From Spirochaetaceae bacterium (GTDB lineage Bacteria; Spirochaetota; Spirochaetia; DSM-2461), in NCBI GenBank assembly GCA_051531975.1, contig JAOPTT010000002.1, positions 313,968 to 377,967 of the forward strand: a stretch of DNA of 64,000 nucleotides, in the 5' to 3' direction. Position 1 is the first letter of the stretch, and each line of letters starts with the position of its first letter. The position numbers and the translations under genes were made by a program. Of the stretch, positions 41,279 to 48,583 are shown in pieces. The notes under the pieces were generated by a model. That model did not search any database. It had not been told where the DNA came from and saw nothing but the letters and a program-made list of their open reading frames with translations.

Positions 41279-41306
41279 AAAAAAAAGCCACCCTAAGGTG
41301 ACTTTT
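41279..41306 (-). terminator. Terminator of the Lol-like operon
   Basis: Minus strand AAAAGTCACC-ttag-GGTGGCTTTT plus a U-run. Confidence 0.8.
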
Positions 41307-41325: not shown

Positions 41326-42810
41326 TTAGAAACTTCCACCACCTAGGTTAACAGTTAAACTAATAGCAAACTCATCACCAAAATCATATTCGTCTCCATC
41401 ATCACTAACATCGAAAGTTGCACCTAATGACATTGAAAGATCATCAAACAGTGAATAAGTTATAGATGGTTTGATAAATCCTGATACATCAACAAGGTTT
41501 AATAGTGAAAATGCACTAATTGATAAATCTTCGTTATCAAAAAGATTACTAATACTAAAACTAAGACCTAAATAATGTTTATGTCTGTTTGTTAAATCAC
41601 TAAATCCTACTCCATCAGCTAACAAAGGTGCTAATGTCACGGCAGCAGAAAGATCTTCCTGAGCCATAAGTGAATATAGTGCTGTGACATCCTTCACAAT
41701 TGTTGAATCACTATCATAACCTTCACCATTATAATAATACTGCCCAATAAATCTGAAACTATTTTCTAGTATATCTTTAGACCACATAAAACCAGCTGTA
41801 CCATTAAAAAACAGTTTTTCGTCGTAAGTAGTTGTAGTATAATCATCTTCTATAAAGGTTTTATCTGAACCATATAGTCCTACTGCTTCACCAAAAAATG
41901 ACCACTGACCAAAGTTTGAATTTGTACCATATGTTGCACTAACCATTCCTCTAGGAGCACTATCTTTCTGATAATAGAAACCTGTACTAACTTCAGTTTC
42001 ACCTAATAATATCTGATACATAGGTGCTACAATTAGGTCTGAAATACTAGCATCTGATGAGTCCTCAAATACTGAATTTGGAACTGTAATAAAAGTATAT
42101 AAATTATCAAGTCCAAAAGGCATACTCATCTTTATTGCAATAGGTCCTTCTCTATCAGCTTCAGGATTTTCTGGATCTATAGATTCTAGACTTAAAAAAT
42201 CTGCAGGACTGAAGAAATAACCTACACCCCATTTTGCATTTTGCTTTCCAACTCTAAAAAACAGTTTATTATCATAATTAAAGTCTGTAAAAAGCTCCTC
42301 AATTGTAATTGCTGGAATCTGAACTTCAGCAAAATTACCTTCAAGAACATCTCCTGGGTTATCTGAATCTTCTAACAGTGCGTTAGCAGAATTGTAGAAT
42401 GGTATTGAAGTTGAAACTTTACCATAATATCTAGTTGAATCCGTTGGTCTTGCATTAAAATACAAAGTAGCACTTAGATCAGGAGAAAAAGTCTCCTCAT
42501 TCTCATCTGGATCTGCTAAGTCACTAAAACCAGGCAGGTCCGTATAAGTTAATCCAGCAGAGATTGAAGCAGAAAATGAACCGCCCCACTCAACACCCTT
42601 AGTTGTTAAAAGTTCAGAGGAAGTTTCAGCAACCTGGTCAGATGTATCTTCTACAACCTCCAAGAAAGAGTCATCTCCTTCTTCTCCAAACATATCGTCA
42701 AAATCAAAATTCTCTAGGTCTACATCGTCTGAGAAGAAATCCTCACCGACCTCTTCTGCAAAGATAAAAAACGATGAACACATCAGTATAATTGCTAATA
42801 TTTTTTTCAT
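41326..42810 (-). CDS. Putative outer-membrane beta-barrel with an acidic N-terminal tail
   Basis: Signal peptide, amphipathic strands, RVGKQNAKWGVGYFFSPAD motif, terminal Phe. Confidence 0.7.
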   Translation of the reverse strand: MKKILAIILMCSSFFIFAEEVGEDFFSDDVDLENFDFDDMFGEEGDDSFLEVVEDTSDQVAETSSELLTTKGVEWGGSFSASISAGLTYTDLPGFSDLADPDENEETFSPDLSATLYFNARPTDSTRYYGKVSTSIPFYNSANALLEDSDNPGDVLEGNFAEVQIPAITIEELFTDFNYDNKLFFRVGKQNAKWGVGYFFSPADFLSLESIDPENPEADREGPIAIKMSMPFGLDNLYTFITVPNSVFEDSSDASISDLIVAPMYQILLGETEVSTGFYYQKDSAPRGMVSATYGTNSNFGQWSFFGEAVGLYGSDKTFIEDDYTTTTYDEKLFFNGTAGFMWSKDILENSFRFIGQYYYNGEGYDSDSTIVKDVTALYSLMAQEDLSAAVTLAPLLADGVGFSDLTNRHKHYLGLSFSISNLFDNEDLSISAFSLLNLVDVSGFIKPSITYSLFDDLSMSLGATFDVSDDGDEYDFGDEFAISLTVNLGGGSF

Positions 42811-42816
42811 AATTAC

Positions 42817-43566
42817 CTACTTATTATTTATTCTTTCTAAATATGCCTTTGTAAATACATCATCTGGTATTTTTGCATTAGAGATATTTGATACCGACAT
42901 CTGAGTCTTTTCACCTTTTTTTAAGTTATCTTGGATAAGTGTCTGTGATGCCATATATTTTCCACCAACAGTTGTCCATTTAGGAATGATAATAGTTCGA
43001 ACTAATCTATCCGATAGAGAGTACTCTTCCTGCTTCAAAGGTAGACCTTTATCTTTTCTAATCCATATTTTTAACTTTGGAGTTGTAACTTCATTTGTTT
43101 TAGCTTCTAGAGTCAGGATATGTACAGAAATTTTTCCTAACTTACTCTCTGCTGTATCTACAATGTTATAGTCTTCAACATATGAAGATGCTCTAACATC
43201 GTTATTTTGAGCATCAGAATCACCAATGTTCTCTTTTAACGAGAAGTGAGAAAACTTTCTACTACCTGGGTCGTAACTCCATGCATTATCACCTGACATT
43301 AAAAAACCCTGTCCTTTATCAACTTCTGGTTTTAAAAATAGGTATAAAGCATTCTCTTCAGAATCTCTTCTAAATATCTGAATTTTAGTTACACTTTTAT
43401 CTTCACCTGGCTTTGTAGAAACTATTGTCCACACCATTGATAAATCCATTCCTTCAAAATCTTGTAAATCGTCAAGTTTTTGTAAAATGCCATTATAATC
43501 TGTCTCTGCGAAGGATGACGTCATCCCAAACAAAGCTAATGTTAAAATCAATATTATTTTTTTCAT
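42817..43566 (-). CDS. LolA-like outer-membrane lipoprotein-sorting protein (start reassigned to ATG 43566)
   Basis: AGGAG SD and signal peptide MKKIILIL; FLKPEVDKGQGFL...WSYDP, IGDSDA, IPDDVFTKAYLE. Confidence 0.85.
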   Translation of the reverse strand: MKKIILILTLALFGMTSSFAETDYNGILQKLDDLQDFEGMDLSMVWTIVSTKPGEDKSVTKIQIFRRDSEENALYLFLKPEVDKGQGFLMSGDNAWSYDPGSRKFSHFSLKENIGDSDAQNNDVRASSYVEDYNIVDTAESKLGKISVHILTLEAKTNEVTTPKLKIWIRKDKGLPLKQEEYSLSDRLVRTIIIPKWTTVGGKYMASQTLIQDNLKKGEKTQMSVSNISNAKIPDDVFTKAYLERINNK

Positions 43567-43650
43567 GTTAACTCCTATCTTAGGTTGCATTGTCGAGCAG
43601 TATTCGTAGAATACGACCCACAAAGCATGTCTTTGTGTATATAACTAAAC

Positions 43651-44958
43651 TTAGTACATCGAGGCTATAGCTTTAGCCGGGTCTAATTTTGCTGCGTTAT
43701 TAGCTGGGAATAGCACTACAAGTACTGTTAAACCACTAACTAAAACTACATTTCTTAATATTATGAAAAATGATGGGATAAATAACAAATGCCCATTATT
43801 TAATAGTAGAGCTATGAAACTCTCTGTTCCAAAGTTTATAAAACTTAGACCAAATGCTACAATTCCAGATAATAAAACACCAGATAATGAACCAGCTAAG
43901 GCTAAAAACATTCCTTCAAATAGGAATATAGCTCTAATACCACTCTTTTGCATTCCCATAGCTCTCATAGAACCAATCTCTTTAACTCTGTCGTACATAA
44001 TCATTCTAAATGTATTTGCAATACCAACAATAATTACCATAAACAGAATACCTAAAACAACTAAACTAATAATGTCTATTACTTTAATAAATACATCAGT
44101 AAAACTAGTCATCTCAGTAATTGTCATAAGTCTATATCGATCTCCAAACCATTCTGGTTCTTTAGTACTAAATGCTAATGACATCATATTTGGACCATCA
44201 CCACCAGTTTCTCTCTCTTTAAATTGAAAATGTGCACTTAGTTGTTCATATAGAGTATCTGCATAACCATCTACTAAATCGATATCGTCAACTGTTAATA
44301 TAATTGACTGAAAGTCATCAGGTTGAAGACCAATCAGACTGTTTAAGAATGATAGATTGGCATAACCTGTAGAAGATGCAAAAAAGCTACTAGATTTTAA
44401 TATACCTACAACTTTAAAATCTGCGACATTAACTTGACCAGTAATTGAGTTTAATTTTGCTATTACGTAATCCCCAACTATAACGTCTAAATCCTCAGCC
44501 ATTTTATCAGTAATTAATATTGCATCTGGTTGGTTTATATCTTCTAAACTTCCTTCTACAAAATTAAAACCTTTTTTAACTTCTTCTTCGACATCCCAGT
44601 TCATTCCATTTAAACTAGATCTGGAACTATTATCTGAAAATATAAGTTCTACACGAACATCACATCTTTTATTTATTTTTGTAATTGGAACACCAGAGTC
44701 CTCAATCATGTTCAGGATTGCTTCTTTGTCAGCCATGTTAGAAATTACTTTTCCACTCTCTAGCTTTTGTTCTCCACCAATTATAATATGTCCATCTAAC
44801 ATTTTAGTAATATTTGTACTCATGGATTCAACAACTCCAAAAGATAACATACTAACAAGTGTTACAATAAAAAGTCCAAATGCAATTGCTGCCGCAGGTA
44901 AGAAGGATCTCTTTTTCTCCCTTAATATATTTCTTAAGGCCATTTTTATATATTTCAT
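43651..44958 (-). CDS. FtsX/LolE-like ABC permease
   Basis: MALRNILREKKRS, a 1+3 TM layout, DRVKEIGSMRAMG, PANNAAKLDP. Confidence 0.9.
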   Translation of the reverse strand: MKYIKMALRNILREKKRSFLPAAAIAFGLFIVTLVSMLSFGVVESMSTNITKMLDGHIIIGGEQKLESGKVISNMADKEAILNMIEDSGVPITKINKRCDVRVELIFSDNSSRSSLNGMNWDVEEEVKKGFNFVEGSLEDINQPDAILITDKMAEDLDVIVGDYVIAKLNSITGQVNVADFKVVGILKSSSFFASSTGYANLSFLNSLIGLQPDDFQSIILTVDDIDLVDGYADTLYEQLSAHFQFKERETGGDGPNMMSLAFSTKEPEWFGDRYRLMTITEMTSFTDVFIKVIDIISLVVLGILFMVIIVGIANTFRMIMYDRVKEIGSMRAMGMQKSGIRAIFLFEGMFLALAGSLSGVLLSGIVAFGLSFINFGTESFIALLLNNGHLLFIPSFFIILRNVVLVSGLTVLVVLFPANNAAKLDPAKAIASMY

Positions 44959-44967
44959 ATCCCCTCC

Positions 44968-46446
44968 CTAACTCTGTATCGCTTTAATAGGATCTATTTT
45001 TAATGCTATGGACACTGGATAAAAACTAGATACTATTCCAATTAGTATACTAACCCCATAACCTAATAATATTGTTTTAAGACTTGTCACTGGGTATAAA
45101 ACCTCTCCAGCAAATAGTGCTTCTAAAATTGCATTTCCATTAAATGATATTCCAACTTTATTGAATATTAAGAGAACAATCAGACCCATAATTATTCCTA
45201 TAGTTCCAAATACTATGGATATGGTGAAAGTCTCTGCAATAAACAGTCTTCTAACAAATCCTTTTTGGGCACCAACAGCTCTCATTGTTCCAATTTCAGA
45301 TGTTCTCTCCATTATTGATACAACTAGAGTATTCATAATTATAATAACAGTTACGATAGCAACAATAATAATGAAGATGTTAATTACAAATTTTAATTGG
45401 TTTATAGTTTCACCTGTTGTTCCAGCGGACTCTTCCCATGTTTGAACTTGTAATGGAATATCATTTTCTAATGACCATGCCTCAATATCTGCTTTAACAT
45501 TATCGATATCACTAATTTTATTTAACATTAAAAGTGTAAAGTTCCATGTTCCTGTACTTGGCTGAGTTAATGCATCTCTAACAGATAGATCACCTAATAC
45601 TTCATCAAAGTCAAAGGATTCATCAATACTTCCCTCTTCAATCTCTTCTGAAAACATTGAGTCAAAATCGAAATCACCATCTAGCAGTTCTAAATCAGAA
45701 TCTTCAACATCGATTTCATCAACAGTTCCAACAATCATCCTAGCTAATATTCTATAGGACTCAACATCTATAATACTCATATTAAAAACAGAGCTATTTC
45801 CATTTTTATACTTAAAGATACCTTTTAAAGGTACTTCGTGTAGTTTCATTCCCCCAGATATAGATTGAAAAGTAACTATATCACCAACTTTAAGGTCTTT
45901 ATCTAGTTCTTCTTGAATATCTTCGATTAACCTATAGTTTAAAATAACACCCTGCTCGTTAGAATTTAGAAATTCTCCTTCTAACATTTCGATATTATCT
46001 GGGAACATTACTGTGTATGAATCAGGATCAATTCCCCATAACTGGGTAAATGCAACATTATCCATAGTTTCATCAAACTTAATCAGGGTTCTAACTCCAG
46101 CAGTTTGCGAGTTTACAGCTTTAGCTTTTGGAATACTATTTAAATATTCGTATACTTTAACATACTCAGGTATTGTTGGGTTTGGTGAATCCCCCATCAT
46201 CTGCGCAGTCATTCCAGCTTCAAATCCAAAGGCAGACATTTTACCTTCATCCATCTTTTTAGATACTAAAAGGTGAGCAGTATAGTTTTCTATAAAAACT
46301 TCTTTACTACCTTTCTCTGCGGAATCAAGGATAGAGTTACTTAAAATCATAACCATAATTCCAATTGCAATTAAGATACCTATAATAAGAGTCTTTGCTT
46401 TATGCTCTCTTAGGTTTCTTATTGCTATTTTTTCAATAGTTCCCAT
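44968..46446 (-). CDS. FtsX/LolC-like ABC permease with an acidic periplasmic insertion
   Basis: IAIRNLREH, ERTSEIGTMRAVGA, YPVSIALKIDPI. Confidence 0.9.
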   Translation of the reverse strand: MGTIEKIAIRNLREHKAKTLIIGILIAIGIMVMILSNSILDSAEKGSKEVFIENYTAHLLVSKKMDEGKMSAFGFEAGMTAQMMGDSPNPTIPEYVKVYEYLNSIPKAKAVNSQTAGVRTLIKFDETMDNVAFTQLWGIDPDSYTVMFPDNIEMLEGEFLNSNEQGVILNYRLIEDIQEELDKDLKVGDIVTFQSISGGMKLHEVPLKGIFKYKNGNSSVFNMSIIDVESYRILARMIVGTVDEIDVEDSDLELLDGDFDFDSMFSEEIEEGSIDESFDFDEVLGDLSVRDALTQPSTGTWNFTLLMLNKISDIDNVKADIEAWSLENDIPLQVQTWEESAGTTGETINQLKFVINIFIIIVAIVTVIIIMNTLVVSIMERTSEIGTMRAVGAQKGFVRRLFIAETFTISIVFGTIGIIMGLIVLLIFNKVGISFNGNAILEALFAGEVLYPVTSLKTILLGYGVSILIGIVSSFYPVSIALKIDPIKAIQS

Positions 46447-46449
46447 AAT

Positions 46450-47148
46450 TTACCTACTAGTTCTCTCATTTTTAATTATCTGACCATCTTTTAATCTAAT
46501 AATATGGTCAGCCATATCTACAATAGTTGCGTCATGTGTTGAGAAGATAAAAGTTGTATTCTGTTCTCTATTAATCTTCTTCATTAAATTAAGAATATCT
46601 TCTCCAGTTTTTGAGTCTAGGTTTGCAGTTGGCTCATCTGCTAATACAATCTCTGGTTTTGTAACTAATGCTCTAGCAATAGCAACTCTCTGTCTCTGTC
46701 CACCAGACAGTTCGTTAGATCTGTTTTTAATTCTATCAGCTAATCCAACTTCTTCGATTAAGTGTTGTATCCACTCTTTCTCTTCTGCTCTGTTACCCCG
46801 TTTACCATCACCTAAAAGTAGTGGAAACTCTATGTTCTCATATACGTTTAATACAGGTATTAAGTTAAATGATTGGAAAATAAAACCTAATGTATCGTGT
46901 CTAAGGTTAGTAATTGTTTTATCTTTTAATCCTCTAGTATTAATTCCATTTATTAGAACGTCACCTTCGGTAGCTGTATCTATACAACCTATCATATTTA
47001 ATATAGTAGATTTACCTGACCCAGATGGACCTGCTATTGATACAAAATCCCCTTTTGTTATTTCGAATGAAACACCACGGACTGCATGTACCTCAGTTTT
47101 CCCGAGAGGATATATCTTATGAACATCCTTTAGTTCTACAATTGCCAT
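46450..47148 (-). CDS. LolD/MacB-type ABC ATPase
   Basis: GPSGSGKST, GFIFQSFNL, LSGGQRQR, ADEPTANLD, STHD. Confidence 0.95.
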   Translation of the reverse strand: MAIVELKDVHKIYPLGKTEVHAVRGVSFEITKGDFVSIAGPSGSGKSTILNMIGCIDTATEGDVLINGINTRGLKDKTITNLRHDTLGFIFQSFNLIPVLNVYENIEFPLLLGDGKRGNRAEEKEWIQHLIEEVGLADRIKNRSNELSGGQRQRVAIARALVTKPEIVLADEPTANLDSKTGEDILNLMKKINREQNTTFIFSTHDATIVDMADHIIRLKDGQIIKNERTSR

Positions 47149-47368: not shown

Positions 47369-48583
47369 ATGGAACTTTTAGCACCAGCAGGAAATATAGA
47401 GAAACTTAAATACGCCTACGAATACGGGGCAGATGCAGCATATATAGGTATTAGAAACTTTAGTTTACGGGCTAAGGCGGACAACTTTAAAGAAAACGAA
47501 CACCTAGAAATCGCAAAAATTAAGGGTGATAAAAAACTTTATTGTGCCTTAAATATATATTTTATGAACGAGGATATTAAAAAACTAGAGGCGGAACTTG
47601 AATATTTTCAGCAGTACCCATTTGATGGTTTTATAATAAGTGACCTTGGAATACTTAATTTAATGAAGAAGTATTTTCCAGATAAAGAACTACATCTTAG
47701 TACTCAAGCAAACTGTACAAATAGTGAAGTTGCCAAATTGTATTACGATCTAGGTTTTAGTAGAATTGTACCAGCTAGAGAGATATCTTTAAAAAATATA
47801 TCGGAAATTAAAACTGCTGTTCCAAATCTAGAAATTGAGTGTTTTGCCCATGGAGCGATGTGTATTGCTTATTCAGGCCGTTGCTTTTTAAGTAGTTGGA
47901 TGACAGATCGGTCAGCAAATCAAGGTAGTTGTTCACACTCATGTCGTTGGGATTATAAAGTATTGGAAGAAGGTAAACGACCTGGAGAGTACTACCCTAT
48001 TGAAGAACATGAACATGGTGTTTCAATAATGTCATCAAAAGATATTTCTATGATTAATCACTTAAAAGATATGAGAGATGCTGGAGTTGATAGTCTTAAA
48101 ATAGAAGGAAGGATGAAATCCATCTACTACACTTCAGTTGTAACAAGAGCATACCGGAAAACTTTAGATGACTTAAATGGTATAGATGTTCCTAATTTAA
48201 AAGGTTACCAAGACGAAATTAACAAAGTGAGCCACAGAGAGTTCTCTACTGGTTTTTACTACGACAACGCGGACATTTCCCGTTCTAGTAAAGAGTCATA
48301 CTCTAGAGAGTTTGTATTTTTAGGTGCAATTGGCCGGAAACAAGCTGATGGAACCTATCTAATAGATGTTAAAAACCAGATTGTCGAAGGTGATGATTTA
48401 GAATTTATTGGTCCTGACCTACTATATATTAAAGATAGTACCTTTGAGTTATTTGATAAAAACAAAGAAAGAACAAATAAAACAGACCACTGTAAAACAT
48501 CTTTTATTAAAACTAGTGTCCCTGTGAAAGAGGGTTATATTATTAGAAAACAAGCCCCAGAACTTCTAGGTGGAAACAGATAA
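47369..48583 (+). CDS. U32 peptidase family Fe-S protein (TrhP/YegQ-like tRNA hydroxylation protein)
   Basis: ELLAPAG, HLSTQA, HGAMCIAYSGRC...CSHSCRW, LKIEGRMKS; upstream TTGACT-17-TAACCT promoter. Confidence 0.9.
   Translation: MELLAPAGNIEKLKYAYEYGADAAYIGIRNFSLRAKADNFKENEHLEIAKIKGDKKLYCALNIYFMNEDIKKLEAELEYFQQYPFDGFIISDLGILNLMKKYFPDKELHLSTQANCTNSEVAKLYYDLGFSRIVPAREISLKNISEIKTAVPNLEIECFAHGAMCIAYSGRCFLSSWMTDRSANQGSCSHSCRWDYKVLEEGKRPGEYYPIEEHEHGVSIMSSKDISMINHLKDMRDAGVDSLKIEGRMKSIYYTSVVTRAYRKTLDDLNGIDVPNLKGYQDEINKVSHREFSTGFYYDNADISRSSKESYSREFVFLGAIGRKQADGTYLIDVKNQIVEGDDLEFIGPDLLYIKDSTFELFDKNKERTNKTDHCKTSFIKTSVPVKEGYIIRKQAPELLGGNR

Follow-up and report, generated by a model that had tools for sequence, protein, structure and literature searches.

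Related trans-envelope systems

The Lol system of Escherichia coli (LolCDE-LolA-LolB) combines a type VII ATP-binding cassette (ABC) transporter, which has two different permeases, with a LolA-fold periplasmic shuttle. LolC engages LolA through its Hook and Pad (PMC10865981); a Hook is the contact to LolA at either end, in LolC as in LolB, with LolB using Hook and Belt (10.64898/2026.09.01.748475). The operon described here lies in a 64,000-nucleotide stretch of DNA (the window) from a Spirochaetaceae bacterium (GenBank assembly GCA_051531975.1, contig JAOPTT010000002.1, positions 313,968–377,967). It shares the transporter type and the shuttle fold with E. coli Lol, and we propose that here too a similar element at both ends engages the shuttle. 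It differs in that the receiver is an integral outer-membrane barrel rather than the LolB lipoprotein, and what the two ends have in common is a linear acidic motif, on an arm predicted to be disordered, rather than a beta-hairpin.

Two other systems are close in outline. AmeABCD of Castellaniella defragrans and the DUF1302-DUF1329 systems (PMC6394551, PMC13499233) also join an inner-membrane pump to a LolA-superfamily periplasmic protein and an 18-stranded OccAB/AlgE-like barrel, and their cargo is hydrophobic, as we propose here; a DUF1302-DUF1329 complex was predicted with an interface predicted template modelling score (ipTM) of 0.84 (PMC13499233). They have an HAE3 pump from the RND (resistance-nodulation-division) superfamily, DUF1329 and AmeC, whereas the operon in the window has an ABC motor and a PF17131 protein, and its barrel has no Pfam match to DUF1302 (PF06980). 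Matched tethers are not mentioned in the accessible parts of either report. The BBJ23-29 system of Borrelia, proposed to export a non-polar ligand, is again a spirochaete combination of a MacB-like ABC transporter, a LolA-like protein and an outer-membrane barrel (PMC13078400). It has a homodimeric permease, an Omp85-type barrel and TPR proteins, in contrast to the two permeases, porin-like 18-stranded barrel, acidic tethers and absence of a TPR gene in the operon studied here. Among shuttles, LolA3 of Porphyromonas gingivalis (PDB 9TP6) and NE2245 (PDB 3BUU) belong by sequence to the same LolA-like family; LolA3 binds LolB only weakly, and positive charge predominates around its opening (PMC13103446).

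The pump-shuttle-barrel module is thus already known in outline, and the apparent novelty is the matched pair of tethers. No description of matched acidic tethers was found among the matches listed by searches of a full-text library that lacks most subscription journals, and the accessible parts of PMC13749626, PMC13721041 and PMC11885536 give no account of these operons.

Gene content and family assignment

The initial annotation had read the locus as a minus-strand operon of an ATPase, two permeases, a LolA-like protein and a barrel, and the coordinates, the Pfam matches and, for the barrel, the predicted structure agree with this. The five genes are contiguous and are, in order of transcription:

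46450–47148, minus strand: LolD/MacB-type ABC ATPase, 232 amino acids (PF00005; 236.3 bits to TIGR02211)
44968–46446, minus strand: permease A, type VII (LolC/E fold), 492 amino acids, with an acidic insert (PF02687)
43651–44958, minus strand: permease B, type VII, 435 amino acids, without the insert (PF02687 and PF12704, FtsX and MacB_PCD)
42817–43566, minus strand: LolA-like periplasmic protein, 249 amino acids, with a signal peptide (PF17131, 142 bits)
41326–42810, minus strand: outer-membrane beta-barrel, 494 amino acids, with a signal peptide and a C-terminal Phe, 18 predicted strands

The ATPase did not reach the cut-off of the LolD model TIGR02211 (307.75 bits), nor did the two permeases, at 60.8 and 81.9 bits, reach that of the LolC/E model TIGR02212 (362.45 bits). 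The LolA-like protein matched PF17131 as its only Pfam family, with no match to PF03548. Because none of the four kinds of component (ATPase, permeases, shuttle and receiver) belongs to the corresponding Lol family by these criteria, we regard the operon as working like Lol without being a member of it. By sequence, the LolA-like protein matched the PDB entries 3BUU (E=2e-21) and 9TP6 (E=1e-5), and also 4Z48 and 3BK5; 3BUU, 4Z48 and 3BK5 have been cited as LolA-superfamily entries (PMC6394551).

A motif shared by the permease insert and the barrel tail

Three acidic-aromatic peptides had been picked out in the initial annotation, DFDFDSMFSEE and SFDFDEVL in permease A and FDFDDMFGEE in the barrel, and all were found where it had placed them. 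The segments that carry them are as follows:

45547–45735, minus strand: acidic insert (inner-membrane tether) of 63 amino acids, residues 238–300, in the periplasmic domain of permease A, 35% D+E
45643–45672, minus strand: main permease motif FDFDSMFSEE, core D-S-M-F (longer form DFDFDSMFSEE at 45643–45675)
45595–45618, minus strand: second, weaker element SFDFDEVL in the insert, outside the [DE]x[LMI]F pattern
42598–42756, minus strand: acidic N-terminal tail of the mature barrel (outer-membrane tether), residues 19–71, 40% D+E
42679–42708, minus strand: barrel motif FDFDDMFGEE, core D-D-M-F, recognized in the sequence and with one helical turn on D-D-M-F in the model

FDFDSMFSEE and FDFDDMFGEE are identical at 8 of 10 positions, and FDFD.MF occurs in only these two proteins among the 5,120 open reading frames (ORFs) of at least 100 amino acids in the genome.

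Conservation was examined in 100 fetched loci, 20 obtained with the barrel as query and 80 picked for spread from approximately 135 LolA-query match rows, to which three operons of the same genome were added. A LolA-like gene was present in 101 loci, and 83 made up the complete set with permease A (score at least 115), permease B and a barrel. In all 83 the gene after the LolA-like gene encodes an integral barrel and permease A carries the acidic insert, the median length at that place being 82 residues. Removal of L070, whose locus shows no signal peptide, left 82 operons. A candidate barrel-less operon, L120, proved to be an assembly gap.

FDxDxxF or FDFD was rejected as the conserved motif, since both proteins carry it in only one of the 82 operons, that of the window. 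What is conserved is the shorter core [DE]-x-[LMI]-F, here D-S-M-F and D-D-M-F, and the co-conservation foreseen in the initial annotation thus stands for this core and not for the longer pattern. The core was found in 76 of 82 inserts, where composition-preserving shuffles gave a mean of 9.4 (maximum 19 in 500 shuffles), and in 56 of 82 barrel tails (shuffle mean 7.0, maximum 15 in 500), with both proteins carrying it in 53 operons. The relaxed form [DEN]-x-[LMIF]-F was present in 81 inserts and 69 tails, and in both proteins in 69 operons. When only the 24 non-redundant operons (LolA less than 55% identical) were counted, 22 inserts and 18 tails had the motif against 3.1 and 2.1 in shuffles. 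Among 150 barrel representatives from a library, 108 of the 132 usable tails contained it (15.9 when shuffled), a count that is biased upward as the query contained the tail. In alignments of 80 permease A and 139 barrel sequences, F265 of the permease motif and the Phe of the barrel motif were each at least 90% conserved. An element like SFDFDEVL also recurs in some permease A orthologues, as judged by eye.

The pair is not shared with the ABC/LolA-like operons examined in other branches. In operons of other branches, none of 48 permeases (one of them a misassigned distant gene) had the insert, at most 35 residues being present there, and the relaxed motif was seen in 3 of 23 barrels, against 3.3 expected from shuffles. 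Within the operons themselves, the segment of permease B equivalent to the insert has a median length of 24 amino acids and contained the motif in one of 82. It is therefore well supported that one motif is selectively conserved in both the pump insert and the barrel tail, and the matched pair is real and conserved, and is probably functional. In one operon, L107, the permease A insert is the only one without the relaxed motif; its barrel tail also lacks the motif, and its LolA-like protein retains F-R-R-D.

The wider proteome bears on whether the two peptides could be recognized by a general factor outside the operon, such as a chaperone, protease or assembly factor. Short acidic-aromatic motifs are, as a matter of general knowledge, common recognition tags, but the motif was not enriched in other exported proteins of this genome, occurring in 44 of 915 signal-peptide N-termini (52.5 when shuffled) and in 5 of 60 acidic N-terminal tails, and paralogous operons of one genome differ in their motifs. 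We consider an outside factor very unlikely. Acidic segments in general gave the same result, as the initial annotation's reading implies: the redefined motif was found in 311 of 3,450 acidic 50-residue windows of the proteome and in 325 after shuffling.

Two further operons of this genome can be noted. A paralogous five-gene ABC operon (G000:C6:243986-249861) has the motifs M-D-D-L-F and E-D-S-L-F, and its permease A, at 611 amino acids, has a second insertion of about 120 amino acids. Downstream of it (G000:C6:240370-243836) are two exported proteins that share an N-terminal domain which may be caspase-like. A TetR-led ABC operon (G000:C9:164182-172417) with four permeases and LolA-like and barrel-like genes has neither acidic insert nor tail.

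A second matched pair in MMPL/RND operons

The same genome also contains an operon of an MMPL/RND pump, a LolA-like protein and a barrel (L172:3954-8806; G000:C7:175953-180805). D-S-F-F-E-E occurs both in an acidic insert of this pump's second periplasmic domain and in the barrel tail. To examine this pair, we used the 30 best loci found with the L172 RND protein as query, which itself contained the insert. Of 29 RND-type loci, ten had an insert of 101–156 residues and the remaining 19 had 12–37 residues. SF[FY] was found in 21 of 30 inserts (1.6 when shuffled) and in 11 of 26 barrel tails (1.9 when shuffled), and the broader [SG]F[FYGM] in 26 and 19 (shuffles 5.8 and 6.2). DxLF was present in four of the 30 inserts and none of the 26 tails, and SF[FY] was not seen in any of the 82 inserts or 82 tails of the ABC set. 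Local variants, too, agree within an operon, one example being D-D-W-G-S in both the pump insert and the barrel tail of L145. The RND insert of L174 consists of about seven tandem copies of a six-residue acidic unit ending in S-F-Y, which suggests that repeat expansion multiplies the motif.

ABC and RND pumps have unrelated folds, and their LolA-like proteins form separate groups. In a midpoint-rooted FastTree phylogeny of 69 LolA-like proteins, those of the insert-bearing ABC operons made up one clade (support 1.0) among the ABC-linked proteins, and those of the insert-bearing RND operons fell in the RND-linked group (support 0.95). We put forward, tentatively and with slightly less than even confidence, a spirochaete address code in which pump and barrel may display the same short linear motif on disordered arms to hold their own shuttle at one site. 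Such a code would have arisen at least twice, as D-x-L-F with type VII ABC transporters and as an S-F-F-type motif with MMPL/RND pumps, and would insulate paralogous pathways.

Co-variation of inserts and tails within operons

In 79 ABC operons, the likeness between an insert and the tail of its own operon exceeded that with permuted partners (double-centred score 6.25, permutation standard deviation (sd) 0.80). The own-pair score for 23 non-redundant operons was 8.56 (sd 1.59). Relative to the barrels of operons with 80–99% identical LolA, the own-pair excess was 3.39 (44 ordered pairs). In this genome three operons have tethers, and the insert of each scored best with the barrel of its own operon (35, 28 and 34, against 21–27). 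Comparison of the sequences, in tests that count kin as independent, thus suggests fine-scale co-evolution of insert and tail.

The same data were considered in terms of acidic spacers that resemble each other because of composition, common ancestry or copying of DNA inside the operon. Both segments are of low complexity, kin share sequence, the L053 pair is identical at 12 of 13 residues, and the tandem repeat in the L174 insert would fit such an origin. Shuffles that preserve composition reach only about a tenth of the observed counts, however, and the matched design occurs in two unrelated pumps. Of 159 identical residues in the 25 best pairs, only 92 are also encoded by the same codon, which therefore gives no pointer to DNA copying. 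We regard the spacer explanation as highly improbable.

Predicted structures of the tethers

The AlphaFold2 (AF2) model of permease A had a predicted local distance difference test (pLDDT) score of 85, and its nearest folds were LolE, LolC and MacB, with LolE the best (E=5e-21). The insert was modelled at pLDDT 55–62 with short helices, one of which (residues 261–265) covers F-D-S-M-F. The barrel had no Pfam match at E values up to 0.1 and no NCBIfam match. Its AF2 model has 18 strands (pLDDT 88, predicted template modelling score (pTM) 0.85), and its closest solved folds are OprD-family porins, MOMP, chitoporin and AlgE; OpdQ (Z 19.1, root-mean-square deviation 4.5, 306 aligned residues), MOMP (Z 18.9) and OccAB4 (Z 18.7) were tied. 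TamAB/BamA entries scored Z 10–12, against 19 for the porins; Omp85 barrels have 16 strands. The nearest named Atlas cluster is DUF1302 (0.94, 166 of 256 features), which is a lead only. The permease insert and the barrel tail are accordingly predicted to lack order over most of their length, the motif alone forming one helical turn.

In neither of the two monomer models is the motif packed with confidence against the rest of its protein. One place where both peptides could bind is a site on the periplasmic face of the barrel, which the barrel's own tail would block and from which the permease tether would displace it, so bridging the membranes. The barrel is the only component other than the LolA-like protein common to the ABC and RND designs, and a conserved Arg-Pro pair (R103-P104 in mature-chain numbering) follows its second strand. 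We nevertheless consider such a site unlikely, as the tail is unplaced in the model built with 139 sequences, in which the first 35 mature residues are below pLDDT 50, and a 63-residue loop anchored at both ends would be limited in reach.

A proposed docking mechanism

The same motif is found at two membranes, and two unrelated pump classes show the same design with different motifs; a common partner inside the operon is therefore likely. Permease B could be that partner for ABC operons but cannot serve RND operons. Only the LolA-like protein and the barrel are shared by both designs and, since the tail is left undocked in the barrel model, the shuttle is the simplest partner. We therefore favour, as somewhat more probable than its opposite, the reading that both acidic peptides are flexible baits directed at a single site of the LolA-like shuttle. 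The Hooks of LolC and LolB and the predicted DUF1302-DUF1329 complex serve as precedents. LolA-like proteins of the ABC insert-bearing clade conserve K52, R66, R67, K84, R103, K220 and K240, and those of other ABC-linked operons do not.

Several findings weigh against this reading. The relaxed motif is missing from 13 of the 82 barrel tails, and the motif patterns were set after the sequences had been viewed. R66-R67 coincides with an arginine that LolA proteins carry on the beta2-beta3 loop (PMC13103446), and hence is not necessarily the bait site. Co-presence is not strict: in L147, L151 and L153 the barrels have acidic Y-x-x-L-F tails and the RND pumps have no insert. The own-pair score of the RND operons was only 2.25 (sd 0.73), some permutations being higher, and phylogeny-aware independent-pairs tests of six single motif positions were not significant, few independent pairs being available.

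Permease B may offer a second contact with the shuttle:

44434–44448, minus strand: hairpin tip at the Hook position of permease B, S-I-T-G-Q (consensus T-x-x-G-Q), identified by conservation

T171, G174 and Q175 of this tip are at least 80% conserved in 82 sequences. Compared with LolF, the hairpin at the Hook position is shorter by seven residues in permease A and by five in permease B. The short hairpins together with the conserved tip suggest that the shuttle would be captured by the tether of permease A and loaded at permease B. A longer permease B, of 570–670 amino acids, is found in one branch (L085:7325-9061 and some 35 loci like it), with about 150 extra residues in a periplasmic stretch that by eye resembles a second Sabre-type subdomain and has no separate Pfam match.

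In the mechanism that we propose, the permease pair would use ATP to extract a hydrophobic or amphipathic cargo. The tether of permease A would capture the empty shuttle, which would be loaded at permease B, on the hairpin with the conserved T-x-x-G-Q tip, and then diffuse to the outer membrane. There the barrel tail would capture the loaded shuttle at the same site, and the cargo would be released into or through the barrel. If a single site is used in turn by both ends, the two docked states would be mutually exclusive. Operon-specific motifs could keep the seven LolA-like proteins of this genome apart. The operon is predicted to be an accessory trans-envelope exporter, the direction being inferred by analogy with type VII ABC and MMPL pumps.

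If this is correct, linear-motif docking would join the known hairpin docking of Lol, the coexistence of seven LolA-like proteins in one genome without cross-talk would be explained, and the findings would bear on the transport of lipids and glycolipids to the spirochaete outer membrane. Operons with a pump, a LolA-like protein and a barrel are widespread, and the shared four-residue motif offers a handle to trap shuttle-cargo complexes and identify the cargo.

Distribution of the LolA-like proteins

This genome has seven PF17131 genes, and PF17131 was found in 178 of 251 genomes of the phylum. Of 401 genomes searched in the phylum, 121 had matches to the LolA-like protein at E values of 1e-20 or below. 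A scan of genome contigs gave two close loci, and a search of plasmids gave 27 distant LolA-like matches. No natural fusion of the LolA-like protein was found among 8,000 longer candidates, which is weak evidence. The C-terminal [IL]-P-D-x-[VIL]-F of the LolA-like protein was considered as a motif-like element and set aside as not specific, because its Phe is also present in the LolA-like proteins of tether-less operons and in 3BUU.

Cargo and genomic context

The initial annotation had suggested a hydrophobic cargo, whether lipid, lipoprotein or small molecule. The only PF03548 LolA match of this genome is elsewhere (G000:C2:434075), as are its best LolC/E matches (contig C18, 198 and 180 bits), which are themselves below the TIGR02212 cut-off. 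Because this genome thus has its own PF03548 LolA, and LolC/E matches that are much better than those of the operon, the operon is not the housekeeping Lol system. Of the three kinds of cargo, lipoprotein is thereby made less likely; a lipid, glycolipid or other amphiphile is more likely than bulk lipoprotein.

No neighbour family recurred in more than 10 of the 82 loci, giving no pointer to the cargo for the branch of the window. A clade of 13 operons (support 99), to which the window does not belong, lies amid surface-polysaccharide genes, and 10 of the 13 have priming transferases or nucleotide-sugar enzymes as neighbours:

L046, L049, L062, L063, L065, L067, L073, L076, L078, L079, L086, L087 and L114: polysaccharide-linked clade, with WecA/WcaJ-type priming transferases and nucleotide-sugar enzymes

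This context hints that the clade exports a lipid-linked glycan.

It also bears on the possibility that the ligand of both peptides is not the shuttle but the cargo, a metal ion or the surface of the membrane; an instance would be a cationic or amphipathic substrate captured at either end. Acidic-aromatic arms would suit cationic amphiphiles, the motif is often repeated (among the 82 operons, 18 inserts and 18 tails have two or more copies), and differing cargo could account for a motif that differs between operon classes. Yet D-x-L-F is retained across operons in unrelated genomic settings, including the polysaccharide-linked subclade, where the cargo probably differs, and single-copy motifs stand at a fixed offset (median 23, 10th–90th percentile 21–25). 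Binding of this kind is fairly unlikely in our judgement.

Expression signals and neighbouring gene

The start of the LolA-like gene is more likely the ATG at 43566, which follows a GGAG site, than the TTG at 43623 in the ORF list. A promoter scan of the operon found no excess above shuffles. The following feature was found at the end of the operon:

41283–41306, minus strand: terminator-like hairpin, from a consensus scan only

In one metatranscriptome, contigs covered parts of four of the five genes, which is too thin to indicate that the operon is expressed or transcribed as one unit. On the opposite strand, the gene upstream of the operon (47369–48583 of the window), presumably encoding a U32-peptidase-like protein, keeps this position only within the same genus.

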